NCBI GenBank assembly: GCA_033854115.1
Contig: JAWOKS010000008.1
Coordinates: forward strand, 9,828 to 73,827
Reading direction: 5' to 3'
DNA: 64,000 nt
DNA from: Thermoplasmata archaeon
GTDB lineage: Archaea; Thermoplasmatota; Thermoplasmata; Lutacidiplasmatales; UBA184
Shown: in pieces, positions 3,448 through 42,690 of the stretch
Layout: each line of letters opens with the position of its first letter
How positions within the stretch are numbered: the stretch's first letter is position 1
Position numbers and translations under genes: made by a program
The notes under the pieces: generated by a model
What the model was told of the DNA's origin: nothing
Databases searched by the model: none
What the model saw: only the letters and a program-made list of their open reading frames with translations

Positions 3448-5952
3448 TTAGGTCGCGGACGAGTGCCGTGAGGCTTCGCCCTCGGGGTGGGCCGACGCCT
3501 CGGTGGGAGCCTCCCCTTCGACCGCCGGCGCCCTCGACGCCCGCGGGGAGCGGACCCGCGCGGCCGGTGCGCCAGCGCGCGCCGGTCGCTTGCGCGCCGT
3601 GGGCGTTCCCGCGGGCGCCTTCGCGCTCCGGGCCTTCTTCGCGGCCGCCGGGGCGGGCGCGGCCGGCTTCGCGCGGGACGGGCACGCCGGGTTGATGCAG
3701 AGCGTCCAGGGAGGGCGCCCGGCCTCGATCGCGGTGACGATGGGGGCCCGGCACTCGGGACAGGGAGGCTGGTCCTTCTCGAGCTTGCCCCGCTGGGGCA
3801 AGGGGTAGGTCACGCGGCACTCGGGGTACCCCGTGCACCCGACGAACCGCTTCCCCGCGAACGAGTAGCGGATCTCGAGCGGGCGGCCGCAGGTCGGGCA
3901 GACGCCGATGCGGAACGCGCGGTGGTGCTCCGCGCAGTCCGGGTTGATGCAGTAGAGGTCGGGCCGCTGCCCGCGGAAGACGATCTTCACCCTCGGGACC
4001 TTGCAAGTTCCGCACAGGAACTCCGGGGCAGGCTCGATGAAGCCGGCGGCCGGCAGCGCGAAGGTCGTAGTGCACGAGCTCGGGTTGTTGACGCACTGGA
4101 CCCAGCGCGAGCCGCGCGGGCTCCGGGCGAGGCGGAGCGCGCCCCCGCACTTCGGGCACGGTCCGACGAAATGCTGGCGGTCGAGCGCGGTCGTGAGGGT
4201 CTGCCGTACCCCCGCCGAGTTCGCGGAGAGGAGAGCGAACGCGTCCCGCAGCATATCCCGCGAGTCGCGCAGGACCTCCTCCTTCGGCTTCTTCGACTCC
4301 GCGACGAGCTCCATCTCCTCCTCGAGGCGATGGGTCATCTCCGGGCGGGTGATCAGGGGCGCGTGGGCGCGCAGCGCCTCCGTGACGGCGACCCCCGTGG
4401 AGGTCGGCTCGAGCTGACGCGCGGAGACGTAGTGGCGGTCGAACAGCTTCTGGAGGACGTCGTGCCGGGTGCTCTTCGTGCCGAGGCCGAGCCGCTCCAT
4501 CTCCTGGACGAGCGAGCCCTGCGTGAACCGGCGGGGGGGTTTCGTCCGGTCCTCCTTGAGGTCGACCGACTCGATGGCGACCGCCTGGCCGACCTCGAGC
4601 ACCGGCATCGTGGCCTCGTCCGGCTGCGTGTAGGGGTAGATCCGGTACCAGCCGGGGTCGACGACCCGGCGTCCCTCGCCCTCGAACCGCTCGCCCGAGA
4701 TCTCGACCGCAACCGTGCGCTTCCAGCCGACCGCGTCGGGCGCGAGCGTCGCGAGGAACCGGCGGACGACCAGCTCGTAGAGCCGGGCGGGCTCGGGCCG
4801 GAGCTTCTTCGGGTCGACGGCGGCCGTCGGGTAGATCGGCGGATGGTCGGTCGTCTCGGTCCGACCGCGCGTGGGTCGGAGCGACGGCTGGGCGAGGACG
4901 AGCTCGGCGGCGCCCGCGAACGGTCCCTCGCGGAACTTCTCCGCGAGGGTCCGGAGCCCGAGGCCGCGCGGGTAGACCGTGTTGTCCGTCCTCGGGTAGC
5001 TGATGAGGCCCTGGGTGTAGAGGTCCTCCGCTAGGCGCATGGCGTACGCGGCGCCGAAGCCGAGACGGCTCGCCTCGGCGACGAAGAGGGTCGTGGAGAA
5101 CGGGATCGGGGGCCTCCGCCGGGTCTCCTCCTCCTGGAACGCGCGGACGGTTCCGGTCCGGGCGTCGCGGACGCGCGCGTAGACGAGGTCCGCCTCGTCG
5201 CGCTTCTCCCAGATCCCGTGCGCGTGGCGCAGCGCGAACGTCTCGCCGGCGTGCGCGCCGGTCGCGACGATCTCCCAGAACGGCGTCGGCTCGAACTCCT
5301 TGATCTCCTGGTCCCGCTCGACGAGGAGCGCGAGCGTCGGGGTCTGGACCCGGCCGACGGAAAGGAAGCTCCGCCCGCGCTGGTTCGCGGTGAGCGAGAG
5401 GTAGCGCGTGAGGAGCGCGCCCCAGACGAGGTCGATCTCCTGGCGGGTCTCGCCGGCCTCGGCGAGCGCGCGGTCGACCTCGGCGAGGTGCGCGAAGCTC
5501 TGGTCGATCTCGTCCCGGGTGAGCGCGCTGTAGCGGGCGCGCTTCACCTCGATGGTCGGGTGGACCTTCTGAAGGAGCTCGAGGCACTCGAGGCCGATGA
5601 GTTCCCCCTCCCGGTCGAAGTCCGTCGCGAGGATCACGCGGTCGTGGTCGCGGACGATCTCCTGGAGGGTCGCGACGATCCCGCGCTCGGTGACGCGCTT
5701 CTCGGGCGTCGTCTCGAGCAGCCTCGGCAACCCCGCCACCGTCCACTCGGCGAGCTCCTTCGGGTAGTCGAGCTCGACGATGTGGCCCCGCAGCCCGACG
5801 ACCGAGTAGGGTCCTTCCGCGCGCTCGAACGTGAAGACGGGGGTGCCGCCGATGCGCGTGCGCTTCATGCGCCCGTCGGACAGCACGATCGCGATCCGGA
5901 GGGCGGTGTTGAACTTCTCGGTGACCACGAGGGTGCGCATGGGGGCCTTCAT
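3448..5952 (-). CDS. topA: DNA topoisomerase I (type IA) with C-terminal zinc ribbons
   Basis: Toprim region (VVTEKFNTALRIA, ATDFDREGE). Active-site Tyr motif QGLISYPRTDN. Several C-terminal CxxC pairs (CPKCGG, CGTCK, CPTCGR, CPECR). A TATA-like TTTATCTA (minus-strand reading of 5968-5975) fits a leaderless start better at the in-frame ATG 5940 (MRTLVVTEK) than at 5952. Confidence 0.93.
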   Translation of the reverse strand: MKAPMRTLVVTEKFNTALRIAIVLSDGRMKRTRIGGTPVFTFERAEGPYSVVGLRGHIVELDYPKELAEWTVAGLPRLLETTPEKRVTERGIVATLQEIVRDHDRVILATDFDREGELIGLECLELLQKVHPTIEVKRARYSALTRDEIDQSFAHLAEVDRALAEAGETRQEIDLVWGALLTRYLSLTANQRGRSFLSVGRVQTPTLALLVERDQEIKEFEPTPFWEIVATGAHAGETFALRHAHGIWEKRDEADLVYARVRDARTGTVRAFQEEETRRRPPIPFSTTLFVAEASRLGFGAAYAMRLAEDLYTQGLISYPRTDNTVYPRGLGLRTLAEKFREGPFAGAAELVLAQPSLRPTRGRTETTDHPPIYPTAAVDPKKLRPEPARLYELVVRRFLATLAPDAVGWKRTVAVEISGERFEGEGRRVVDPGWYRIYPYTQPDEATMPVLEVGQAVAIESVDLKEDRTKPPRRFTQGSLVQEMERLGLGTKSTRHDVLQKLFDRHYVSARQLEPTSTGVAVTEALRAHAPLITRPEMTHRLEEEMELVAESKKPKEEVLRDSRDMLRDAFALLSANSAGVRQTLTTALDRQHFVGPCPKCGGALRLARSPRGSRWVQCVNNPSSCTTTFALPAAGFIEPAPEFLCGTCKVPRVKIVFRGQRPDLYCINPDCAEHHRAFRIGVCPTCGRPLEIRYSFAGKRFVGCTGYPECRVTYPLPQRGKLEKDQPPCPECRAPIVTAIEAGRPPWTLCINPACPSRAKPAAPAPAAAKKARSAKAPAGTPTARKRPARAGAPAARVRSPRASRAPAVEGEAPTEASAHPEGEASRHSSAT

Positions 5953-6190
5953 TCAGGCGGGCCGCGGTAGATAAACCGACCGCCCCTCGCCGTGACGCGA
6001 CCGCCTTCGAACGTGGGCGCGCGCGTTCGACCGGTCGATCGTCGGGCCGGACCCCCGGGTCGCGACCGACCCCTCTCCCTCGGACCTCGCTCCTGCGTCG
6101 CCCTCCGGGGGGCCGGAGCGGAGCCCGCGGCGGACGGGGGACCGGCCGGCTTATCGCGGGCGGAACGGTGGGCGGCTCCCGGGGGTCCGC

Positions 6191-7120
6191 GTGATCGACC
6201 TCGAGGAGCTCACCAAACGGTTTGGCGACGTGGTCGCGGTCGACGGCCTCACGCTCCACGTGAACGAGGGGGAGATCTTTGGCTTCCTCGGACCCAACGG
6301 CGCGGGCAAGACGACCACCGTACGGATGCTCACGGGTCTCATCTCGAAGACGAGCGGCGAGGCCCGCGTGGGGGGCTTCGAGATCGGCCGGGAGGAGGAC
6401 CGGATGAAGATCCGGGGGATGGTCGGCCTGCTGCCGGAGAACGTCGGCCTCATCGAGGAGCTGAGCCCGGTGCGCAACCTCGACTTCTACGGCCGGCTCT
6501 ACGATTGCCCCGACGACCGACGGCGCGCGAACATCGAGCGGCTGCTCACGATGCTCGACCTCTGGGACCAGCGCGACCGGCCCGTGGCGACGTTCTCGAA
6601 GGGGATGAAGCAGAAGGTCGCGGTCGCGCGCGCGCTCGTCCACGATCCCCGCGTGCTGTTCCTCGACGAGCCGACGGCCAACCTCGACCCTGAGGCGACC
6701 CGGACCGTGCGCGACGTCATCCTCCAGCTGAAGCGCGAGGACCGGACGATCGTCCTCACCACCCACAACCTGTACGAGGCGCAGCGCATCTGCGACCGGG
6801 TGGCGATCGTGAAATCGAAGCTCGTGACGGTCGGCTCGCCGGACGAGCTCCGCTCACGGTTCCCTTCGGTCCGCACGGTCCTCCGGCTTGAGCGCGTGAC
6901 CGAGCCGGTCCTGGCGGCCGTGCGCGCGAGGATCGGGACCCGCTCCATCGTCGCCGAGGGCAACAGCCTGATCGTCGGGGTGTCCGACCCGGCACGGGAG
7001 AACCCGGACCTGGTCGAGGCCGTGGTCGCGGCGGGGGGCCGGGTCCAGCAGGTGACGGAGCTCGAGCCCTCGCTCGAGGACGCCTACCTGAGCCTCGTCC
7101 ACCAGGGCGAAGGGGGGTAG
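6191..7120 (+). CDS. ABC transporter ATP-binding protein (ABC-2 type)
   Basis: Walker A GPNGAGKTTT, signature FSKGMKQKV, Walker B LFLDEPT. GTG start. Stop lies 1 nt before the permease gene start. Confidence 0.9.
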   Translation: MIDLEELTKRFGDVVAVDGLTLHVNEGEIFGFLGPNGAGKTTTVRMLTGLISKTSGEARVGGFEIGREEDRMKIRGMVGLLPENVGLIEELSPVRNLDFYGRLYDCPDDRRRANIERLLTMLDLWDQRDRPVATFSKGMKQKVAVARALVHDPRVLFLDEPTANLDPEATRTVRDVILQLKREDRTIVLTTHNLYEAQRICDRVAIVKSKLVTVGSPDELRSRFPSVRTVLRLERVTEPVLAAVRARIGTRSIVAEGNSLIVGVSDPARENPDLVEAVVAAGGRVQQVTELEPSLEDAYLSLVHQGEGG

Positions 7121-32628: not shown

Positions 32629-33786
32629 TCAGTTCGGGATGACCTCAATCTCGGGGTAGCCGGGCTTCGGCTGTGGCGCGGCCCGCTTGATGAGTTCGGC
32701 CCACCGGAACCCTCCGAGCGGGGCGAAACCCGCGGCGACCCCCGGGGTTGTCCCGAGGGACTGATGGTCGCGCACGAGGTTGTAGTGCGCCCGGAAGCCC
32801 TCCATGAGTGCCCCGGTTCCCCGGTCCGTGTCGAACCCGCGCATGACCTTGATGCGCTCCTTCTCGGTCCCGTGGAGCCTCTCGACAAGGTTGTTCGACT
32901 CCTTGGCCCGGATGCTCGGGACCCGGACGTGAGGACTCCGGCTCCCGCGACCGAGTTCCTTGACGACCGCCTTCGGGTAGGCCGTCATCCCATCCGTGAA
33001 CACCTCGTTCGGCCGGTCGGGAGTGACCGCCTTGGCCTTGTGCAGAGGGGCCTGAGTGTCGCTCAGTCCCCGGTTCTCGCTGACGTGCGTGGCAAGGAGG
33101 AACCGTGTGTCCCGGTCGAGGACGTTCCAGAGATACCGGGGTGAGCCGTCCACGTTTACCACCGTTTCGTCCACGTGCCACCGCTCTCCGGTCCGGGCCC
33201 CCTGACGGTCCATCCTCTCCGCGGCCAGCTTCCCGAAGTGGGTGACCCACCGATAGACCGTGACGTGGCTGACGTTGAGGCCCTGAGCCTGCCGGAAATG
33301 CTCCGCGACCTTGCGGACGGACATGCCCCGGAAGTAGAGGTCGAGCGCGAGGGCGATCTTGTCGGGGTCAGCCCGGCGGCGCTGGAAGCCGTCCCGGCCC
33401 GTGAATCGGTAACCGCACCCGCGGCATAGGAAACGGGCGAGTAGTCCGCTCTTGTTGTGCCTCTTACCGTTCCCGACTACGTTACCGGACCCGCACCGAG
33501 AGCAGGTCTCGGACACCGAGGGTAGAGGCTCGGCCCCAACCTTGAACCCTTCCCGGAACCGGACCGCAAAGACGTGGATGCATGAGATCCCGGTCTCCCG
33601 GAAGAAGGGACAGTCGCACGACCACCGGTCCCTCATGACGGTGACCTTGTACTCCACCCCAAGCCGGCTCTGAGAGCGCACGACGTACTCCGTGGGGGAG
33701 ACCGTCTGAATCTGGTCGCCGCGAGCTACGATAGCGAGAGCCGGGGTTCGCATGTCGGACCACACCTCCGTCATCGGCAGGGACAT
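32629..33786 (-). CDS. IS6-family DDE transposase with N-terminal SWIM zinc finger and Zn ribbon
   Basis: SWIM motif WSCDCPFFRETGISCIHVFAV. Ribbon CSRCGSG...CRGCGYRF. HTH MSVRKVAEHF...VSHVTVYRWV. DDE core WHVDETVVNVDG...YLWNVLDRDTRF...TDGMTAYPKAV...NNLVERLHGTEKERIKVMRGF. The first 107 codons of track ORF 32629..34107 overlap neighbouring genes and were dropped. The ATG at 33786 or at 33774 (MTEVW) is the likely start; 33774 is about 26 nt from the centre of the ATATAT element at 33797-33802. Confidence 0.85.
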   Translation of the reverse strand: MSLPMTEVWSDMRTPALAIVARGDQIQTVSPTEYVVRSQSRLGVEYKVTVMRDRWSCDCPFFRETGISCIHVFAVRFREGFKVGAEPLPSVSETCSRCGSGNVVGNGKRHNKSGLLARFLCRGCGYRFTGRDGFQRRRADPDKIALALDLYFRGMSVRKVAEHFRQAQGLNVSHVTVYRWVTHFGKLAAERMDRQGARTGERWHVDETVVNVDGSPRYLWNVLDRDTRFLLATHVSENRGLSDTQAPLHKAKAVTPDRPNEVFTDGMTAYPKAVVKELGRGSRSPHVRVPSIRAKESNNLVERLHGTEKERIKVMRGFDTDRGTGALMEGFRAHYNLVRDHQSLGTTPGVAAGFAPLGGFRWAELIKRAAPQPKPGYPEIEVIPN

Positions 33787-33792
33787 ATCAAC

Positions 33793-33878
33793 GTGGATAT
33801 ATGAAGGTGGCGTATCCACTTGGATTACAGGGGTGGACCGGAGGCCGTATATATGTGGATAAACTTGTCCACTTGGAT
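33793..33878. promoter_or_regulatory. Divergent intra-IS control region with two TATA-like elements and repeated motifs
   Basis: GTGGATA at 33793-33799 and 33855-33861, each fused to an alternating AT run (33797-33802 and 33848-33854). TCCACTTGGAT at 33815-33825 and 33868-33878. GTGGATA-N13-TATCCAC forms an inverted repeat. Confidence 0.45.
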
Positions 33879-34044
33879 GCCGAAGTGGAAGAAGGACGCC
33901 AAGGAGTTCACCGTGAGCGTCAACTACCACGAGACCCGAGGGACCCTGACGACTATCCCCAAGCCAGTGGTCGATCATCTTTCCCGACCCGAGAAGATCA
34001 CGTTCGTGATTCGGAAGGAGAAGGTCGAGGTTCGGGCAGCGTGA
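33877..34044 (+). CDS. Small AbrB/SpoVT-like DNA-binding protein (55 aa), divergent from the transposase
   Basis: The ATG at 33877 inside track ORF 33820..34044 gives MPKWKKDAKEFTVSVNYHETRGTLTTIPKPVVDHLSRPEKITFVIRKEKVEVRAA, with the swapped-hairpin-like pattern tIPK.v...l....kitF.i. The start is ~26 nt from the centre of the TATATAT element at 33848-33854, which suggests a leaderless transcript. Confidence 0.45.
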   Translation: MPKWKKDAKEFTVSVNYHETRGTLTTIPKPVVDHLSRPEKITFVIRKEKVEVRAA

Positions 34045-34807
34045 CCCGTGGGCCAAAGTCGATACCCGAAGGATCTTCCTGAATCCACTCCGCCACGCGG
34101 TTTTCAATGAGCTCCGGGTCCATGAGGTCCCAGAGTTCGGAAACCTTCTCTCCCCAGACCGACCTCTGTAGTTCTCTGCCGCTGGGTTTCAGGGCAAAGT
34201 AGGTCGGGACGACGGCTGCCGCCAGGACCGCGGCCAGAACGAGGAGCAACATGGAGGAGTCGTTCTGGTCGTGAAATCCTATGGTGAGCAAGGAAGGTAT
34301 GACCGAGAAGAACCCAAACACCAACAGCAGCAGATCGGCTTTGAAGCCGGTTCTCCTTGCCACACTCGAGTTTACGATGAGCCACTCAATCCGCTGAATC
34401 TTCTCTCGGCAGAGATGCTCCTCGTTCTGGTCTCCCTTGTTGGTCGGCCCCGACGCAAGCACGCGGGCCCTGTCGTAGAGGTGATAGCGCAGGGAGAGCA
34501 GAACCGACCTTAGTGACGTACCATCGGCCCGGATAGATGTGAGCTTCTTGTGGGGAAGCCACAGGTAGTTGTTGCACACGACGTAAGCGAAGGTCCAACC
34601 CATCGCCACGGCGACAACATAGGTTATTGTCAGATACGGAATCACGAGAGTGACCTCCGTGAAGTAGAGAAGGGCCGCTCCACCTGCCGTGATGAGGGCG
34701 GCCACGATGGCGGGACCGAACTTGCGCGAGGTCGGCATCCAAAGGTCGGCGTCCTCCGGAATGGGAACTCCGGGAAGTCGGTATGACGGAGGGACGTGAC
34801 CCGACAT
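33998..34807 (-). CDS. 4-TM membrane protein of unknown function (IS passenger gene)
   Basis: 269-aa ORF with low-GC codon usage. It has two N-terminal and two central hydrophobic helices separated by a soluble loop. No family recognised. Its 3' end overlaps the AbrB-like gene by 47 nt, convergently. Confidence 0.6.
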   Translation of the reverse strand: MSGHVPPSYRLPGVPIPEDADLWMPTSRKFGPAIVAALITAGGAALLYFTEVTLVIPYLTITYVVAVAMGWTFAYVVCNNYLWLPHKKLTSIRADGTSLRSVLLSLRYHLYDRARVLASGPTNKGDQNEEHLCREKIQRIEWLIVNSSVARRTGFKADLLLLVFGFFSVIPSLLTIGFHDQNDSSMLLLVLAAVLAAAVVPTYFALKPSGRELQRSVWGEKVSELWDLMDPELIENRVAEWIQEDPSGIDFGPRVTLPEPRPSPSESRT

Positions 34808-34858
34808 GCAACGGCCAGTGTTTCCCCGACGCTAATCACCCGATGGGGTAACAGAACC

Positions 34859-34867
34859 TCCTCCGGG
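34859..34867. repeat. Right flanking direct repeat TCCTCCGGG
   Basis: Identical to 32553-32561. With the adjacent terminus it forms a 21-bp direct repeat GGTAACAGAACCTCCTCCGGG (32541-32561 and 34847-34867). Confidence 0.55.
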
Positions 34868-34874
34868 AGGAGTC

Positions 34875-34931
34875 TATATACCTGAAACACGATATGTCAA
34901 TCGTCAGACAAAGAAGCACATCTTGTCTGAC
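34875..34931 (+). promoter_or_regulatory. Promoter (TATATA) and 9-bp inverted-repeat operator candidate upstream of the RHH gene
   Basis: TATATA at 34875-34880. GTCAGACAA (34903-34911), an 11-nt spacer, then TTGTCTGAC (34923-34931), ending 5 nt before the ATG at 34937. Confidence 0.45.
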
Positions 34932-34936
34932 AAGCC

Positions 34937-35302
34937 ATGGTCGACACCTCGGAGCGGGTGACCGTACGGATCCCCCAGGAACTGCTCGAGAAGCTGAAGC
35001 AGATCCAGGAGGCGAAGGGCACCGCCACCATCTCCGACACCATCCGTGAGGGGCTCGAGCAGTACATCGAGCTCCACCTTCCTCCCCACCACATCCGCAA
35101 GGTGGTCGTCGAGCTCTCCCGTCGCGACAACAGCCGGCTCGAGGAGTTCGTTCGGGAGGGCAACTCCGTGAGCGTCGACGACGCGGTCCGCTCGGCGGTG
35201 CGGGAGTACATCCGCAGTCGCATCGACCAGCTCGCGCCCCCCTCGAGGACCCACCGACGGGAGGGCGAAGCCGTCACCGCCGAGGACGCGCCCCCTCCGT
35301 AG
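34937..35302 (+). CDS. Tandem ribbon-helix-helix (CopG/Arc/MetJ-type) DNA-binding protein, CdrS-like context
   Basis: Two RHH units in one 121-aa chain: RVTVRIPQELLEKLKQIQEAKGTATISDTIREGLEQYIE and KVVVELSRRDNSRLEEFVREGNSVSVDDAVRSAVREYIRSR. Its stop lies 15 nt before the ftsZ-like ATG, which has an AGGAGG Shine-Dalgarno element. Confidence 0.75.
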   Translation: MVDTSERVTVRIPQELLEKLKQIQEAKGTATISDTIREGLEQYIELHLPPHHIRKVVVELSRRDNSRLEEFVREGNSVSVDDAVRSAVREYIRSRIDQLAPPSRTHRREGEAVTAEDAPPP

Positions 35303-35317
35303 GAGGACGAAAGGGCG

Positions 35318-36343
35318 ATGCTCGAGCGGTCGGCGGCGGACGCCCTCGATGCCTTCGCGCTCTCTCCGTCGATCGCCGTGGTCGGCCTGGGGGGGGCGGG
35401 GAGCGAGGCCGTCGAGGACCTCGTCACCCTCGGGCTCCCGGGCGCGCGGGCGATCGCGGTCAACACCGACGCGACGCACCTGCGCCGGGTCGGCGTGGAG
35501 GAGCGGATCCTCCTCGGGCGGCGACAGTTCGGCGGCCGCGGGAGCGGCGGGGACCGCGACGCGGTCCTCCTGGCCGCGGAGGAGAGCCGGGAGGAGGTCG
35601 TCCGCCGCCTCGGCCAGTTCGAGCTCGTCTTCCTGCTCGCCGGGCTGGGGGGCGGCACCGGGAGCGCGCTGCTGCCGTTCCTCTCCCGGGAGCTGCGGGA
35701 GACGCCGGCGCTCCCGATCCCCGTCGTCTTCCTTCCGTTCCGCATCGAGCTCGAGGCGAACTCGGGGCTCCGGGCGAACGTCGAGCGGGCGGTCGCCGAG
35801 CTCGAGGAGCTCGGGGGCCTCCTCCTCCCCCTCGCCAACGAGAAGCTCCGCCGGTTCGACACGCTCGCCGTCCACCGCGTCTTCCGGATCCGGAACGCCT
35901 ACCTCCACGGGCTGGTCGCGAGCTTGGTCGACATGGTCGATCACCCGAGCCAGCTCAACGTCGACCTCGCGAGCTTGAAGAGCCACCTGAGCCAGTCGGG
36001 GCTCTCGACCCTCGTCATCGGCGAGCACCACATCAGCGAGCCCGACCGGCTCGTCCGCCAGGCCCTCGCCGATTCGCTCCTCGACTTTCAGCTGCCGGAC
36101 CACCCGACCGCCCTCGTCCATCTCGAGGGAGGCACGAACCTGACGCTCCGCACCCTCGACGAAGTGCTGCGCGAGGTCCGTGCGAGCTTCCGCGACCCCG
36201 AGCGGCTCGTCTTCGGGACCCGCATCCGCCCCGAGCCCCGCGAGGTCGTGCGGCTCACGGCCGTGCTCGGAGGCCTCCGGCCCCGCACCGTCCGGGAGGC
36301 GATCCGGCCCGCGGCCGCGCGCCCCGCCCTACCCGCGCGCTGA
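35318..36343 (+). CDS. Divergent FtsZ/tubulin-superfamily GTPase
   Basis: IAVVGLGGAGSEAV (T1), NTDATHL, GGRGSGGDRD, LLAGLGGGTGSALLP (tubulin signature with the last G changed to A), NVDLASLKS (T7 loop). 341 aa, with no long C-terminal linker. Confidence 0.8.
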   Translation: MLERSAADALDAFALSPSIAVVGLGGAGSEAVEDLVTLGLPGARAIAVNTDATHLRRVGVEERILLGRRQFGGRGSGGDRDAVLLAAEESREEVVRRLGQFELVFLLAGLGGGTGSALLPFLSRELRETPALPIPVVFLPFRIELEANSGLRANVERAVAELEELGGLLLPLANEKLRRFDTLAVHRVFRIRNAYLHGLVASLVDMVDHPSQLNVDLASLKSHLSQSGLSTLVIGEHHISEPDRLVRQALADSLLDFQLPDHPTALVHLEGGTNLTLRTLDEVLREVRASFRDPERLVFGTRIRPEPREVVRLTAVLGGLRPRTVREAIRPAAARPALPAR

Positions 36344-36372
36344 GGAGCGGCCTGCCCGGGAAGGGCGGGACG

Positions 36373-36975
36373 CTAGCCGTGCTCTCGCACGTCGAGCTCA
36401 CGGTGGAAGACGTCGATCACCTGGCTCGTGCGGAGCGACCTCGGCCCGACCGAGACCTTCGGGACCCCGCTCGCGGTGAGGATCGCCGCTTCCTCCGGAG
36501 GCGGGTCGAACGGGTCCGAGACGAACGCGGCCACGTCCAGAGAAGGGGGGTTCCAGGCGGCGAGGGGCGCCCCCTTCTCGGTCAGCCAGACGGCGCCGCT
36601 CTGGCGAAGGAACCCCTCGAGGTAGCGCGGGGGGTCGACGGGGCCGACCCTCAAGCCCGGGGAGGACTCGAAATCGGAGGGGAAGTGGGCGGCCCGGACG
36701 AGGGCGTTCTTGAGGAGGGCCGCGGTCGACCGCTCGTCGGGGTTCAGGTACCGCAGGCGGGCCCCGACCAGCTCGATCCTCCGGGCGGCCGGAGGGGGCT
36801 CGGCCGAGAAGATGATCGCGACCTCGGTGTCCCGTCGCAGATCGTTCGAGAGCGTGAACGCGGTCGAGACCGCGCGGGCGACCTCGTCCATCCGGCCCGC
36901 GCCCCCCGCGAGGTCGTTGAGCGTGAACTCGCCCCTCGGCGGGACCTTGTGGGCGATGAGGAGGAACCGTCGCAT
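36373..36975 (-). CDS. trmY: tRNA (pseudouridine54-N1)-methyltransferase (SPOUT, DUF358)
   Basis: MRRFLLIAHKVPPRGEFTLNDLAGGAGRMDEVARAVSTAFTLSNDLRRDTEV... matches the TrmY N-terminal pattern (F.L.DL.G.aGR.D...R). Confidence 0.8.
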   Translation of the reverse strand: MRRFLLIAHKVPPRGEFTLNDLAGGAGRMDEVARAVSTAFTLSNDLRRDTEVAIIFSAEPPPAARRIELVGARLRYLNPDERSTAALLKNALVRAAHFPSDFESSPGLRVGPVDPPRYLEGFLRQSGAVWLTEKGAPLAAWNPPSLDVAAFVSDPFDPPPEEAAILTASGVPKVSVGPRSLRTSQVIDVFHRELDVREHG

Positions 36976-37028
36976 CGGCCCGCCTCCCGAGGGGTGGCGG
37001 GGGTTAACGGTTCGGGCCGCGGAACGTT

Positions 37029-37700
37029 TCAGTCGGCGGTCGGGCCCGCCCGGCCACGGTGGGTCGGCGGGGCCGCCGGGGCCGCGGGCGAGGGGCTCTG
37101 GCGCCGCTCGAGCCAGATCTCGTCCCCGAGCTCATGGTAGACGGCATGGGCGGGAAGGCCCGTTCCGTGCTCGCCGTGGGGAAGTCGGTAGCCTCCCGAT
37201 CGCTGGGCGTTCGGGGAGTACACGACCTCCTGCTCGCCGGCCTCGGCCATCGCCTCCGACTCCTCGCGGGCGAGCTCGAAGATGCGGTCCTTGCGGAACA
37301 TCCAGTAGTGGATCCGCCACTCGCGGCCATCGTAGAGGGTCGTCTCGTCGCGCTCGGTCTCGAGGATCCCGGTGTCCTCGAGCATGTAGAACGTGTCGCG
37401 GTCGTCCGGCTCGAGGACGTTGTCGATGATCCGCTCGTTGAAACCGAAGAAGTTGAGGACATGGGCCGCGATCGACCGGGCGTCCTCCGGGCGCATCCCG
37501 TCGTGGCCGACCGACCGGCGGATCGCCTTCGCGAGCGAGTCGAAATCGACCGGCCCGGACGCGGCGGCGAGCGCGGCGTCCTCCGGGATCCCCACGCGGG
37601 TCGTGGTGACGTCAGCCGCAGACCTCAGCGGAAGTGGATTGCGCAGCCGGTAGGCCTTCGACGCCTCCGGCTTGGGCGGGCGCCCCCCCGTGCCCGACAT
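37029..37700 (-). CDS. Conserved hypothetical protein
   Basis: The ATG at 37700 (MSGTGGRPP...) lies 24 nt downstream of the minus-strand TATA TTTATATA. It has a structured core AHVLNFFGFNERIIDNVLEPDDRDTFYMLEDTGILETERDETTLYDGREWRIHYW. The upstream part of track ORF 37029..37943 was rejected. Confidence 0.6.
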   Translation of the reverse strand: MSGTGGRPPKPEASKAYRLRNPLPLRSAADVTTTRVGIPEDAALAAASGPVDFDSLAKAIRRSVGHDGMRPEDARSIAAHVLNFFGFNERIIDNVLEPDDRDTFYMLEDTGILETERDETTLYDGREWRIHYWMFRKDRIFELAREESEAMAEAGEQEVVYSPNAQRSGGYRLPHGEHGTGLPAHAVYHELGDEIWLERRQSPSPAAPAAPPTHRGRAGPTAD

Positions 37701-37724
37701 GCGCGAATCTATCCCGTGGTTCGC

Positions 37725-37732
37725 TATATAAA
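37725..37732 (-). promoter_or_regulatory. TATA box (TTTATATA on the minus strand) for the leaderless gene starting at 37700
   Basis: This is the only AT-rich octamer in the spacer, with 24 nt between the box and the ATG. Confidence 0.5.
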
Positions 37733-37765
37733 CGTTCGCCGAGCGCATCGACCGCGCCGGCCTCT

Positions 37766-38344
37766 TTAGACGGCCGGACGACGGGGGCGAGCGAGGCGCT
37801 GGAAGGTCTCGACCGTCGGGCGCCACTCTTCCTCCTCGAGACGGCGCTCGACGTCCGCGAGATCGCCGAGGTCCCGCGGAAGAGGGACGAAGGAGCGGGC
37901 GAGGTAGACGTGGGCGAACGGGCTCCCCGGCGGCCCCTCCCACGCCTTCCCGGCCGCCTCCGCGGCCCGGAAGGCGTAGTACTCGGGGGCGGGGGTGAAC
38001 CAGACGATCGCGTCGTCGGTCCCCCTGAGCCGCGGTCCCCGCGCGTGGACCCGGAGCTCGAGATGCTGGGCCACCTGGGTCGGCAGCGTGAACAGAAGGC
38101 GCTCCCCTGGCCGCGAGGTCGCAAGGAGCCGGCCCCGGACCGTCTCGACGGCGAGCGCCTCGCGCGCGGGGTGGGTCGGGACGATGCGGGCGATCCCGCG
38201 TCCCCGTGCGAGGAACGAGACCGACCGTCCCGCGAGCTCGCCTGGATGGGCCCGGGGGTCGAACCGCAGCATCTGGGCGACCTCGGTGGGGATCATCAGG
38301 GTGAGCCAGGAGGGGTGGGTCGCGCGGACGATCACATACTCCAT
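37766..38344 (-). CDS. Hypothetical protein with two AbrB-like pseudo-repeats
   Basis: 192 aa. LTLMIPTEVAQMLRF and LLFTLPTQVAQHLEL are internal repeats of the xIP.eva..L type. A minus-strand TTCTTATA element (38368-38375) lies 23 nt upstream of the ATG. Confidence 0.55.
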   Translation of the reverse strand: MEYVIVRATHPSWLTLMIPTEVAQMLRFDPRAHPGELAGRSVSFLARGRGIARIVPTHPAREALAVETVRGRLLATSRPGERLLFTLPTQVAQHLELRVHARGPRLRGTDDAIVWFTPAPEYYAFRAAEAAGKAWEGPPGSPFAHVYLARSFVPLPRDLGDLADVERRLEEEEWRPTVETFQRLARPRRPAV

Positions 38345-40742: not shown

Positions 40743-42452
40743 CTAGGACGTCATCCCGGGCGCCTGCTTGAGCGCCCGGATTTTGTAGTACTCAGGGTCG
40801 ACGGTGACCTCGCCGTTGATCCCCATCGTCTCGATCGTCTTCAGGGGGACGCCCACCTGCGACTTCGCCCGCTGCCAGTCGGGGATCGGGATCGAGAACT
40901 TCTTCTCGACCTCCGTCCGGTAGATCGGACCGGAGTTGTACGAGCAGAACGGGATGATCCGCCCGTCGGGCACCGCGTAGTGGATGTCGCAGCGCATCAG
41001 GCGCTGGATGTCGTAGTCGTAGGCGTCCTGGAAGTGCATGTTGCCGATGTAGAGCGTCCGCCACGTGAACTTCGCGACGGCCTCCTTGTTGCCTTCCGTG
41101 AAGATCGCCGCGATGATGCGGACAACGTTCTTCTCGGTGACCCCCTCGGGCGCCTTCGAGAAGTCGAAGTACTTCGCGACATCGTGCAGGAGCCGCGCCC
41201 CGGCGACCGCCGTCCGGACACGGGCGAACCGGGCGTCCCGGTACTTCTCGATCATCGACTCGACGTTCTCGAAGAAGCCGTCGACGTCCATGAACCGCGG
41301 GAGCGGCGTGATCGTCTGCCCGTCCTTCGAGACGAACGCGAACGTCGCGCAGCCGCAGCCCGGGTGCGTCGTGAGCGTCATCTTCTCCTCGCCGTGGATG
41401 ATCGATGCGAGCTCCGAGATCGGCGCGACCGACGGCACAGGGAAGAAGTCGGACTTGTCGAACGGTCCGTCGGTGCAGAGGATCCGGACGAGGTCGGACT
41501 GGGTGAACCGCATCTGGAAGCGGTCCTTGTCCGGGATACGGGCGGTGAGCGCCACCGGCTGGAAGTTGACGCCGCGGACGACGTCGATGTTGTCGATCGC
41601 GAACTTCACGGTCGGCCAGATCTCCTTCTCGTTGAACCCGCCGACCAGCGTCGGGACGAGGACGACCGAGAGCGGCTTGTCCGGCTTCCCCGCGGCGAGG
41701 TCGGCCGCGGGCGAGTGGGTCTCCCGCGCCGCCTGGATCGCCTTCTGCTTCACCTTGAGGAGCGGAACCCCGCGCACCTTGCGGTAGATCTCGTCGTCCA
41801 GGCCGTCGAACTGAAGGTAGAGGGTGTGGAGGCCCGCGTCGCGGGAGGCCTGCGCGAAGCCGGGCTCGTTCGCGACACGGATCCCGTTCGTCGCGACCTG
41901 GATCTGCTTGAAGCCGAGGTCGCGGGACATGCTGACCGCGTCAAGGAAGAGCGGCGAGAGCGTCGGCTCCCCACCGGAGAACTGGACCGCCACGGTGCCG
42001 ACCGGCTTCTGTTCGCGCAGCGTCTTCAGCATGAAGTAGATCTGCTCGCGGGTCGGTTCGAAGACGTAGCCCGCGGCGTTCGCGTTGGCGAAGCAGACCG
42101 GGCACTTCAGATTGCAGCGGTTCGTGAGGTCGACGAGCGCGAGCCCCGTGTGCGACTTGTGGTGGCTGCACATTCCGCAGGTCGTCGGGCAGCCGATGAA
42201 CTTGTCGTAGTACGGGTTCTCGTAGCCAACCCCGTCGTGGGCGTAGACCTCCATCCGGAGGTAGAAGTCGACGTCGTTCGAGATGATGTCCCAGAAGTAG
42301 CCGTGGGTGCGGCACGTCTTCTCCATGATGACGCGCCCCTCCTTCTCACGGACGATTGCCGGGATGACCTTGATGCACTCCGGGCAGACGGATGCGGTCT
42401 TCCGGGGGAGACCCCGGGGGGCCTGGAACTCCTTCATTACGCGCGCCGGCAT
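40743..42452 (-). CDS. Radical SAM protein of the MJ0619 / tetraether-lipid-synthase (Tes, GDGT-MAS) type
   Basis: N-terminal Cys/His knuckle SVCPECIK...CRTHGYF. Radical SAM motif TNRCNLKCPVCF (CxxxCxxC). Followed by QFSGGEPTL. The ATG at 42452 (MPARVMKEF) is preceded by GGAGGAAGG at -8; the longer track start at 42530 was rejected. Confidence 0.75.
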   Translation of the reverse strand: MPARVMKEFQAPRGLPRKTASVCPECIKVIPAIVREKEGRVIMEKTCRTHGYFWDIISNDVDFYLRMEVYAHDGVGYENPYYDKFIGCPTTCGMCSHHKSHTGLALVDLTNRCNLKCPVCFANANAAGYVFEPTREQIYFMLKTLREQKPVGTVAVQFSGGEPTLSPLFLDAVSMSRDLGFKQIQVATNGIRVANEPGFAQASRDAGLHTLYLQFDGLDDEIYRKVRGVPLLKVKQKAIQAARETHSPAADLAAGKPDKPLSVVLVPTLVGGFNEKEIWPTVKFAIDNIDVVRGVNFQPVALTARIPDKDRFQMRFTQSDLVRILCTDGPFDKSDFFPVPSVAPISELASIIHGEEKMTLTTHPGCGCATFAFVSKDGQTITPLPRFMDVDGFFENVESMIEKYRDARFARVRTAVAGARLLHDVAKYFDFSKAPEGVTEKNVVRIIAAIFTEGNKEAVAKFTWRTLYIGNMHFQDAYDYDIQRLMRCDIHYAVPDGRIIPFCSYNSGPIYRTEVEKKFSIPIPDWQRAKSQVGVPLKTIETMGINGEVTVDPEYYKIRALKQAPGMTS

Positions 42453-42690
42453 TGCTTCCTTCCTCCGTCTTCGGCCCTGCTCTGCAGCTTGGGCCTGCCT
42501 CGACCACCGATCCTGTCGTACATAACCCATCTGTCGTTCTTGTCGCTACAGTCTCGGCATCCCATGACGGACAATCGCACGGTTCCGCTCGCTACAACGC
42601 TGCCGAAGGGGAGCCGCTGGACGCGGCCGAGGGGGCGGGACCGTCTCCGGTCCATGGTACCTTAAGGCCCACGGCGTGTCGCTAGGGACC

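Follow-up and report, generated by a model that had tools for sequence, protein, structure and literature searches.

A stretch of 64,000 nucleotides (nt) from a Thermoplasmata archaeon of the Lutacidiplasmatales lineage UBA184 (assembly GCA_033854115.1, contig JAWOKS010000008.1, positions 9,828 to 73,827; hereafter the window) carries a gene for a small ribbon-helix-helix (RHH) regulator immediately upstream of, and in the same orientation as, a gene for a divergent FtsZ homologue. The pair is probably the Thermoplasmatota version of the cdrS-ftsZ2 division operon known from Halobacteria, pairing a tandem CdrS-like autorepressor with a derived FtsZ2-type protein. A first-pass annotation of this DNA had described a cdrS-ftsZ2-like module whose twist was an RHH protein fused from two units. 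The module and the fusion stand up to closer analysis, and the twist proves to be a family-wide trait and not a peculiarity of the locus, since the two-unit form is the standard form across Thermoplasmatota, including Methanomassiliicoccales. The gene pair and its parts are as follows.

34937 to 35302, plus strand: tandem-RHH regulator gene, CdrS-like, encoding 121 amino acids (aa) with two RHH units
34946 to 35083, plus strand: RHH unit 1 (aa 4-49), with strand ERVTVRIP and helices 14-27 and 32-47
35090 to 35233, plus strand: RHH unit 2 (aa 52-99), with strand RKVVVELS and helices 62-73 and 80-99
35234 to 35299, plus strand: clade-specific C-terminal tail (aa 100-121), with invariant R107 and R108 and a terminal PP, modelled with lower confidence
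35301 to 35306, plus strand: AGGAGG, Shine-Dalgarno (SD)-like, overlapping the TAG stop codon of the RHH gene and lying 11 nt before the ftsZ-like ATG
35318 to 36343, plus strand: divergent FtsZ2-type tubulin homologue, 341 aa, with Pfam domains Tubulin and FtsZ_C

Both open reading frames (ORFs) are real genes, since each product has hundreds of full-length homologues, and the G+C content at third codon positions (GC3) is of the coding type in both (0.91 in the RHH gene and 0.96 in the ftsZ-like gene, in a window of 71.5% G+C). Near-identical proteins and loci carry the source names of uncultured Thermoplasmata from a soil and peat clade, to which the term clade refers below. The two ORFs, the 15 nt (35303-35317) between the RHH stop codon and the ftsZ-like ATG, and the AGGAGG in front of that ATG lie where they had first been reported, and a purine-rich gap of 13-19 nt separates the RHH and FtsZ-like genes in nearly all related loci. 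The earlier description of the genes as translationally linked is an interpretation of this arrangement, the sequence itself offering a conserved purine-rich gap. The start codon of the RHH gene in the window has no SD sequence.

As judged by profile comparison, the regulator is an internal duplication of the RHH unit, with two units per chain. Pfam places RHH_1 on aa 7-45 (35.8 bits against a cutoff of 20.5, E 7e-9), and in single-sequence Pfam scoring unit 2 falls below threshold, with RHH_8 at 14.4 bits against a cutoff of 25.4 and a likewise sub-threshold hint of ParR on aa 54-106. A profile-profile alignment of the N-terminal half with the C-terminal half, built on an 83-sequence family alignment, brings 46 columns into register (strand, helix, helix) with a probability of 98.7% and E 1.8e-16; the clade homologues alone, which are 75-91% identical, give E 1e-3 in the same comparison because they are too similar to one another. 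Positions 52-106 of the family profile, corresponding to unit 2, match the solved RHH proteins 6x0a (E 1.3e-5), 4me7, 6iya, and 7etr, and independently of this the profile matches NikR, 5ceg, ORF56, and CopG structures via unit 1, which Foldseek superposes on the RHH domain of NikR with a root-mean-square deviation (rmsd) of 0.5-1.3 Å over 42-48 residues. The AlphaFold monomer predicted from the 83-sequence alignment has a predicted local distance difference test (pLDDT) score of 90.4 and a predicted template modelling (pTM) score of 0.59, and its four helices repeat the helix-helix pattern twice, with helices 62-73 and 80-99 of unit 2 modelled at pLDDT >90; a model from a shallow, clade-only alignment of 19 sequences reached pLDDT 48 and was discarded. 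The objection that the second unit might not be an RHH, which the first-pass annotation had raised against itself, is answered by the in-register halves and by the matches of unit 2 to solved RHH proteins.

Conservation differs along the chain. The DDAVRSAVREY motif of unit 2 is the most conserved part of the regulator family, and the DNA-facing strand residues of unit 1 (R7, T9, and R11) are 85-98% conserved, whereas the outward strand residues of unit 2 (K/R55, T/V57, and E/D59) are less basic. The C-terminal tail is absent or different in other lineages, and with its Arg107-Arg108 and Pro-Pro it might act as a short linear interaction motif.

Searched exhaustively with the family profile, 1.84 billion representatives yielded at least 120 clusters (50% identity) in Thermoplasmatota of 95-135-aa proteins that match both halves. 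Close relatives of the regulator form 370 clusters at 90% identity, and a profile leaving out the window's clade added a further 432, with source names Methanomassiliicoccales, Methanomethylophilaceae, "Thermoplasmatota archaeon," and "Methanobacteriota archaeon"; the motif DA[IV]RxAVREY has 419 confirmed matches in GTDB species-representative genomes. The pairs of Methanomassiliicoccales and other Thermoplasmatota, whose two-unit proteins are annotated as "CopG family" or "ribbon-helix-helix domain-containing protein," have in common with the window the two-unit architecture (32-44% identity), the position upstream of FtsZ, the geometry of the GTCNGAC boxes discussed below, and a convergent SPOUT methyltransferase downstream. 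They differ in that their regulators are ~100 aa long and lack the clade-specific tail, and in that their FtsZ is canonical (NLDY/FAD T7 loop, GGGTGTG), whereas the FtsZ of the window's clade is much faster-evolving.

The survey of tandem-RHH and FtsZ pairs that had been suggested bears out the linkage. The 80 related loci compared are the closest ones, all from the window's clade, and breadth beyond it comes from the protein searches and eight single distant loci. An FtsZ-like gene lies directly downstream of the RHH gene in 78 of the 80 clade loci, the other two stopping at a contig edge. A full-length FtsZ follows the RHH gene in four of the eight distant loci (L083, L086, L091, and L092), a 272-aa Tubulin-only remnant in L088, and in L084 a 160-aa remnant that is 29% identical to the 272-aa protein of L088; no FtsZ follows the RHH gene in L089 or L090, where, in the latter, pheT is found instead. 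The decay of the FtsZ partner while the regulator persists suggests that in Methanomethylophilaceae-type genomes the two-unit regulator has targets besides its own operon. In such genomes (L084/L085 at 5001-6103, L088 at 4001-5117, and L089), the two-unit RHH gene stands just after the L11-L1-L10-L12 ribosomal cluster, and a haloarchaeal origin considered for acidic family members such as P0308 was rejected because their gene neighbourhoods are those found in Methanomethylophilaceae-type genomes. Two database proteins of 290-294 aa, P0268 and P0298, carry the two-unit RHH fused in frame to the N-terminal part of a canonical FtsZ; these are most likely frameshift or gene-call artefacts, and as such an independent case of RHH-FtsZ adjacency in another lineage.

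The second line of evidence lies in the promoter region, where a conserved two-box element precedes the RHH gene in the window and in the 79 related loci with enough flank for an upstream comparison.

34873 to 34880, plus strand: TATA-like box TCTATATA, presumed archaeal promoter of the operon, 85-95% or more conserved in 79 related loci
34890 to 34902, plus strand: conserved non-coding block CGATATGTCAATC between the TATA box and box 1, at least 95% conserved, holding the ATG at 34894
34903 to 34911, plus strand: box 1 of the candidate operator, GTCAGACAA, core GTCAGAC, starting 22 nt after the TATA box
34923 to 34931, plus strand: box 2 of the candidate operator, TTGTCTGAC, with 5 nt between its end and the start codon

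The inverted repeat GTCAGACAA-N11-TTGTCTGAC, in motif form GTCNGACAA-N11-TTGTCNGAC, occurs once in the 64-kilobase (kb) window against 0.02 expected, and once per related locus. Its spacer is 11 nt long in 79 of 79 loci while the spacer sequence drifts, and its 9-base-pair (bp) arms are perfect in 72, the other seven having single uncompensated arm changes (four at the centre base of a box, two in the AA flank of box 1, and one in the TT flank of box 2). Each core reads as a GTC-N-GAC palindrome, with 22 bp from one core centre to the other. The same geometry recurs in L083 and L086, whose regulators are only ~35-42% identical to that of the window: GTCNGAC cores at a distance of 22 bp, whose centre bases are C/G and G/C, lie upstream of the RHH gene ~22 nt after TTATATA, and ~21 nt with an SD-like GAGAGG intervene between box 2 and the ATG, compared with 5 nt in the window. 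The element thus keeps its distance to the TATA box and not to the start codon. This favours a transcriptional operator situated at the transcription start, and with it negative autoregulation. The two-box inverted repeat is likely an autoregulatory operator, downstream of a TATA-like box that would serve as the promoter.

The ATG at 34894 was tried as the true start of a 135-aa form and rejected: in the window its frame differs from that of the gene, whose real start is 43 nt away, and in L003 a TAG interrupts the frame; the block CGATATGTCAATC is therefore conserved as DNA or RNA and not as protein. Many database entries are 135 aa long (P0003, P0006, and others), gene callers having started at the ATG within the conserved GATATGTCA block. 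The added N-terminal stretch, which corresponds to 34894-34936 in the window, overlies the operator and is probably an artefact of annotation.

[quoted passage not shown] There, cdrS is co-transcribed with ftsZ2 (PMC7439475, PMC8406309), and in the pairs of H. salinarum (VNG0194H-VNG0192G) and H. volcanii (HVO_0582-HVO_0581) the RHH gene is likewise directly upstream of the FtsZ2-type gene, the position and orientation that the window regulator has as well. Haloarchaeal CdrS is a single RHH of ~60 aa, whereas the window protein holds two units in 121 aa. Aligning both units to CdrS, as had been proposed, reveals a resemblance to the NF058555 (CdrS) model, on which the whole regulator scores 26.2 bits against an equivalog cutoff of 100 bits and units 1 and 2 score 17.9 and 15.0 bits. 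Unit 1 of the window regulator does slightly better on the NikR and aCcr1 models, and both units are closer to the haloarchaeal CdrS model than to most other models. In P0252, a Methanomassiliicoccales-type member, NF058555 is the best NCBIfam match of both units (40.3 and 29.6 bits). Because the scores are far below 100 bits and CdrS has a single unit of ~60 aa, the regulator is best placed outside the curated CdrS family, as a CdrS-related protein in the genomic position of CdrS. The other haloarchaeal name in this context, CdrL, belongs to an RHH and double-zinc-ribbon protein found in Halobacteria only (PMC7439475); it has no part in the module described here. No description of a two-unit CdrS-type regulator was found in the literature, a search that did not cover the 93-locus cdrS-ftsZ2 table of Darnell et al.

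The 341-aa product of the second gene exceeds the Pfam cutoffs for Tubulin (81.8 bits, cutoff 33) and FtsZ_C (41.7 bits, cutoff 27) and stays below that of TIGR00065 (176.8 against 295.2 bits). Its best matches in the PDB are archaeal FtsZ proteins at E ~1e-40, against E 1e-7 to 1e-10 for CetZ, which identifies it by homology as an FtsZ and not a CetZ. In published surveys, ftsZ2 is associated with an RHH/parD gene and ftsZ1 with translation genes (PMC7439475, PMC8178401, PMC9871819), and for this reason RHH-linked FtsZ proteins were treated here as FtsZ2-type. On the profile of this set, which is equated with FtsZ2 from published synteny and holds no experimentally named FtsZ2 sequence as reference, the window protein scores 198.9 bits, compared with 166.1 on an FtsZ1 profile. 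All 120 clade proteins likewise score higher on the RHH-linked profile (mean +26.8 bits), and held-out controls and E. coli FtsZ behaved as expected. By these scores, an extremely derived, fast-evolving FtsZ2-type protein fits better than FtsZ1.

Several motifs of the protein are altered, among them the T7 loop.

35957 to 35974, plus strand: T7 loop NVDLAS (aa 214-219), with the second catalytic Asp of N.D..D replaced by Ser

This segment aligns to NLDFAD in PDB 9v7v and to NVDFAD in M. jannaschii FtsZ1 (1w5e), and the position of the second Asp is occupied by Ser in 110 of the 120 clade homologues and by Thr in the other 10, so the N.D..D pattern is absent throughout. In FtsZ, GTP hydrolysis by the adjacent subunit depends on activation by this aspartate (D212 in E. 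coli). Invariant in the clade are also GGGTGSA in place of the tubulin signature GGGTG[ST]G, with the rest of the T4 loop intact, the G-box GLGGAGSEA with Asn changed to Glu, and the T3 loop GRGSGGDR. In the clade alignment the protein ends 20-25 residues past FtsZ_C in an unconserved Pro/Arg/Ala tail, with no GID-type peptide, the C-terminal element by which archaeal FtsZ1 and FtsZ2 bind SepF (PMC8178401). Canonical archaeal FtsZ2 has in common with it the Tubulin and FtsZ_C fold, the upstream RHH gene, and a short N-terminus, and RHH-linked FtsZ proteins also share the motifs L[IV]H..GG.N-L and [VL][IV]FG.R; it differs in having N.D[FY]AD where the clade has NVDLA[S/T], in the GGGTGSA and G-box substitutions, and in its GID-type C-terminal domain. 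The FtsZ2 partner of haloarchaeal CdrS likewise differs from the window protein, which is without the T7 Asp and the C-terminal tail. No second FtsZ gene is present in the window or the related loci, and no SepF-like gene was found among 30 window ORFs scanned with Pfam.

The FtsZ2 assignment also draws on the RumEn M1-like Methanomassiliicoccales locus L083, which has two tandem, near-identical FtsZ1-type genes (367 and 376 aa) beside secE-spt5 and only ~2 kb from the RHH-FtsZ2 operon, giving three ftsZ genes within 6 kb (516-2926 and 5001-6373), of which the RHH-linked one (347 aa) is the remaining paralogue.

A working model can be assembled from these observations. A single promoter (TATA box, 34873-34880) would give rise to a bicistronic RHH-FtsZ transcript, the first gene encoding a CdrS-related regulator with its RHH unit duplicated in tandem, and the second a tubulin homologue that derives from FtsZ2 and evolves fast. 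The regulator most likely binds both GTCNGAC boxes, 22 bp or two helical turns apart, and since these start ~22 nt after the TATA box, and hence at or just after the transcription start, binding would repress the operon and so determine how much FtsZ2-like protein is made. The boxes would be occupied by two DNA-reading RHH modules, related by a two-fold axis and spaced by two helical turns as in the operators of tetrameric RHH repressors, each module formed either within one chain from units 1 and 2 or between chains. NikR, the best solved-structure and Foldseek match of unit 1, offers a comparison: the E. coli nik operator consists of two half-sites about two helical turns apart, like the candidate operator here, and the two RHH dimers of NikR are parted by a metal-binding tetramerisation domain, whereas the window protein has a second RHH unit and no metal-binding domain. 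The regulator may also control genes elsewhere. The FtsZ2-like protein keeps its nucleotide-binding loops and probably still binds GTP and joins filaments; it would co-assemble with FtsZ1, with altered GTPase coupling and membrane anchoring. Having lost the second T7 Asp, it would stimulate hydrolysis in its neighbour poorly, and having lost the SepF-binding tail, it would lack the usual SepF anchoring. Box binding, repression, co-transcription, and any role in division are predictions from sequence.

Several observations weigh against the autorepressor and FtsZ2 model. The binding of the regulator to the boxes is deduced from sequence conservation. H. volcanii CdrS is an activator that binds mostly 41-110 nt upstream of transcription starts, upstream of promoters (PMC8406309), so repression from a candidate site at the transcription start of its own operon would differ from the model system. 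The FtsZ2-type assignment of the downstream gene, which the RHH-linked profile favours, is left weaker by the phylogeny, as a neighbour-joining tree rooted on E. coli FtsZ makes the clade sister to RHH-linked FtsZ with only 31% bootstrap. On the FtsZ2-type profile, FtsZ1 proteins score 340-359 bits and E. coli FtsZ 261, compared with 199 for the window protein, so orthology rests mainly on synteny, and a separate canonical FtsZ2 elsewhere in the genome is possible. The inverted repeat, finally, might work as an RNA hairpin. It is predicted to fold at -13.7 kcal/mol (z -2.1), and its centre bases are complementary in four lineages (A/T, C/G, G/C, and C/G), as base pairing predicts. These features, together with perfect 9-bp arms around a free 11-nt loop in 72 of 79 loci and an end only 5 nt before an ATG without SD, would suit a 5′-terminal leader hairpin that controls mRNA stability or access to the start codon, while the RHH protein regulated other genes or bound the leader RNA. 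This combination is considered quite unlikely. The element of L083 and L086 is fixed relative to the TATA box and not to the start codon, each core forms a palindrome of its own, and beyond the hairpin there are additional TGTC/GACA half-sites (GACAAATGTC in L083 and L086, ATGTCA in the window). The single arm changes in seven clade loci, four of them at the centre base, are uncompensated, the arms are otherwise invariant within the clade and hence show no real covariation there, and Rfam has no match in 34600-36500.

How the two units are disposed on DNA bears on another proposal of the first-pass annotation, namely that the fused protein is a single-chain pseudo-dimer that could recognise an asymmetric operator. 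Each chain would then be a monomeric pseudo-dimer, the strand of unit 1 pairing with that of unit 2 as in F-plasmid TraY, with one chain on each asymmetric site; this is somewhat doubtful, and yet it has precedents. F-plasmid TraY, SIFV gp29, and Bicaudaviridae aCcr1 homologues likewise carry at least two RHH repeats in one polypeptide, and aCcr1 relatives are, likewise, archaeal cell-cycle regulators. The TraY monomer has been demonstrated to hold the whole RHH-dimer fold in one chain (bioRxiv 2024.12.19.629322), and a monomeric fold is predicted for SIFV gp29 of the aCcr1 clade, whose single chain carries two RHH motifs, the bicaudavirus homologues having more (PMC9976892). The window regulator has two complete RHH units per chain, and their strands differ (R-T-R in unit 1, K-T-E/D in unit 2), so a ribbon of the N- and C-terminal strands (N:C) would be strongly asymmetric; the 9-bp arms, made up of the core and an inner AA/TT, are asymmetric and inverted, which fits two asymmetric modules about a dyad. 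The palindromic box cores, on the other hand, suit a symmetric ribbon, and no specific sequence relationship is detectable to TraY or gp29, which act in the relaxosome and in virus-host cell-cycle control. In the AlphaFold monomer, a confident model, DSSP assigns no beta-strand to residues 7-12 or 55-60, where an intrachain ribbon would show strands, and the linker from helix 2 of unit 1 to the strand of unit 2 comprises only ~7 residues, with a conserved proline. Foldseek against the PDB returned one-unit superpositions only, with single-chain Arc (1u9p) at rmsd 17.5 Å, and the best match in BFVD is borderline (94 columns, TM 0.41-0.52). Mean-field direct coupling analysis of 337 family sequences (effective number of sequences, Neff, 125) gave plausible intra-unit contacts and no strand-strand pattern between units, which does not decide between N:C pairing and pairing of N-terminal strands from two chains (N:N′). 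Taken together, the modelling leans against the simple intrachain pseudo-dimer, which the predicted monomer does not bear out, and the expectation of an asymmetric operator finds no counterpart, the only conserved candidate operator being a two-fold symmetric pair of boxes.

The remaining alternatives concern the FtsZ-like protein. It may no longer be a division-ring protein at all, having become a derived cytoskeletal or regulatory tubulin, CetZ in spirit, or a filament capper, to which the RHH gene is attached as an inherited regulator. The score below the TIGR00065 cutoff, a greater distance from FtsZ2-type proteins than that of E. coli FtsZ, the T7 change in 120 of 120 homologues together with the GGGTGSA and G-box substitutions, and the missing conserved tail with its GID-like, SepF-binding motif (PMC8178401) would all be expected of such a protein, and the decay to 272 or 160 aa, or loss, of the RHH-linked gene in Methanomethylophilaceae-type loci implies that it is dispensable there. 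The derived motifs are nevertheless under strong purifying selection, the operon structure and regulator are those of ftsZ2, and the PDB matches are clearly FtsZ-like and far stronger than those to CetZ. Departure from the ring is held to be unlikely. A toxin-antitoxin-like or partner-binding module, in which the RHH protein would neutralise the FtsZ-like protein through unit 2 or the tail besides binding DNA, is very improbable. It would draw on the description of ftsZ2 by Pende et al. as "frequently with parD" (PMC8178401), on matches of the family profile to ParD/CopG antidote structures (5ceg, 6x0a, and 7ycv), on the conserved clade-specific tail with its invariant RR and PP, and on the acidic strand of unit 2, which is unusual for a DNA-reading ribbon; yet the best NCBIfam matches are CdrS, NikR, and aCcr1-type regulators and not antitoxins, the partner is a housekeeping-type FtsZ, single-copy and in a fixed chromosomal place, and the pair itself bears no signal of mobility. 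A more speculative elaboration of the FtsZ2 model joins several of these strands. The clade's FtsZ2-like protein would be beta-tubulin-like, binding GTP without the hydrolysis trigger or the SepF tail, and acting only as a partner or cap for FtsZ1 filaments; tight autorepression would fix its amount, the tandem CdrS recognising both boxes through asymmetric RHH modules assembled with two-fold symmetry. As a whole, this combination is regarded as distinctly improbable.

The cdrS-ftsZ2 module, the synteny of RHH genes with ftsZ2, and fused RHH proteins are each already known separately. What is new, as far as could be established, is the tandem-duplicated regulator in the CdrS position of Thermoplasmatota, its conserved candidate operator, and the strongly derived FtsZ2 of the soil clade. 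The value is incremental: the case in the window is one of hundreds, and it extends the known CdrS-FtsZ2 module and is no one-off oddity. If the autorepressor model is right, the common Thermoplasmatota form of the regulator, including that of gut and rumen Methanomassiliicoccales, would be a duplicated two-unit RHH with a simple, strongly conserved operator at its own promoter, providing a directly testable binding site and a natural system for the study of how a fused RHH reads DNA. The soil clade, with its T7 change and without a SepF-binding tail, amounts to a natural experiment on FtsZ2 that bears on the division of labour between the two archaeal FtsZ paralogues, and should the beta-tubulin-like reading be true, archaea would here have moved a step towards a tubulin-like system that is obligately heteropolymeric and has a single-chain regulator of its own.

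The surroundings of the operon are ordinary chromosomal genes, among which one convergent neighbour stands out for its conservation.

36373 to 36975, minus strand: TrmY-like SPOUT RNA methyltransferase, convergent, Pfam Methyltrn_RNA_2 (E 1.2e-29)

The TrmY-like gene is found in 73 of 80 related loci and a DUF6015 gene in 68 of 80; in the window the DUF6015 gene lies beyond the TrmY-like gene on the minus strand, both within 36373-37943. The TrmY-like gene is a conserved neighbour and is not claimed as part of the mechanism. Methanomassiliicoccales loci have a different SPOUT enzyme (SpoU_methylase) at the equivalent convergent position. Also downstream of the operon are a Na+/H+ exchanger and a radical-SAM enzyme, while the upstream genes comprise a formate-tetrahydrofolate ligase, a GNAT acetyltransferase, an IS6-type transposase, and an orphan membrane ORF; an S13-S4-RpoD cluster, DnaJ, citrate synthase, and KdpAB lie elsewhere in the window.

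Directly upstream of the operon promoter, 32629-34807 is occupied by the IS6-family transposase (DDE_Tnp_IS240, 492 aa, GC3 0.78) and the overlapping membrane ORF of 269 aa, which has no Pfam match and no counterpart in the 80 related loci. The two together, next to a conserved promoter, look like a window-specific insertion. On the other side, ~5 kb from the operon, 40743-42530 on the minus strand encodes the radical-SAM protein, with an HMPTM-type N-terminal zinc ribbon. In L090 (5121-6321), a distant and AT-rich locus, the same radical-SAM/HMPTM-type family occurs ~2 kb from the two-unit RHH gene, and this proximity in both places may be a coincidence.

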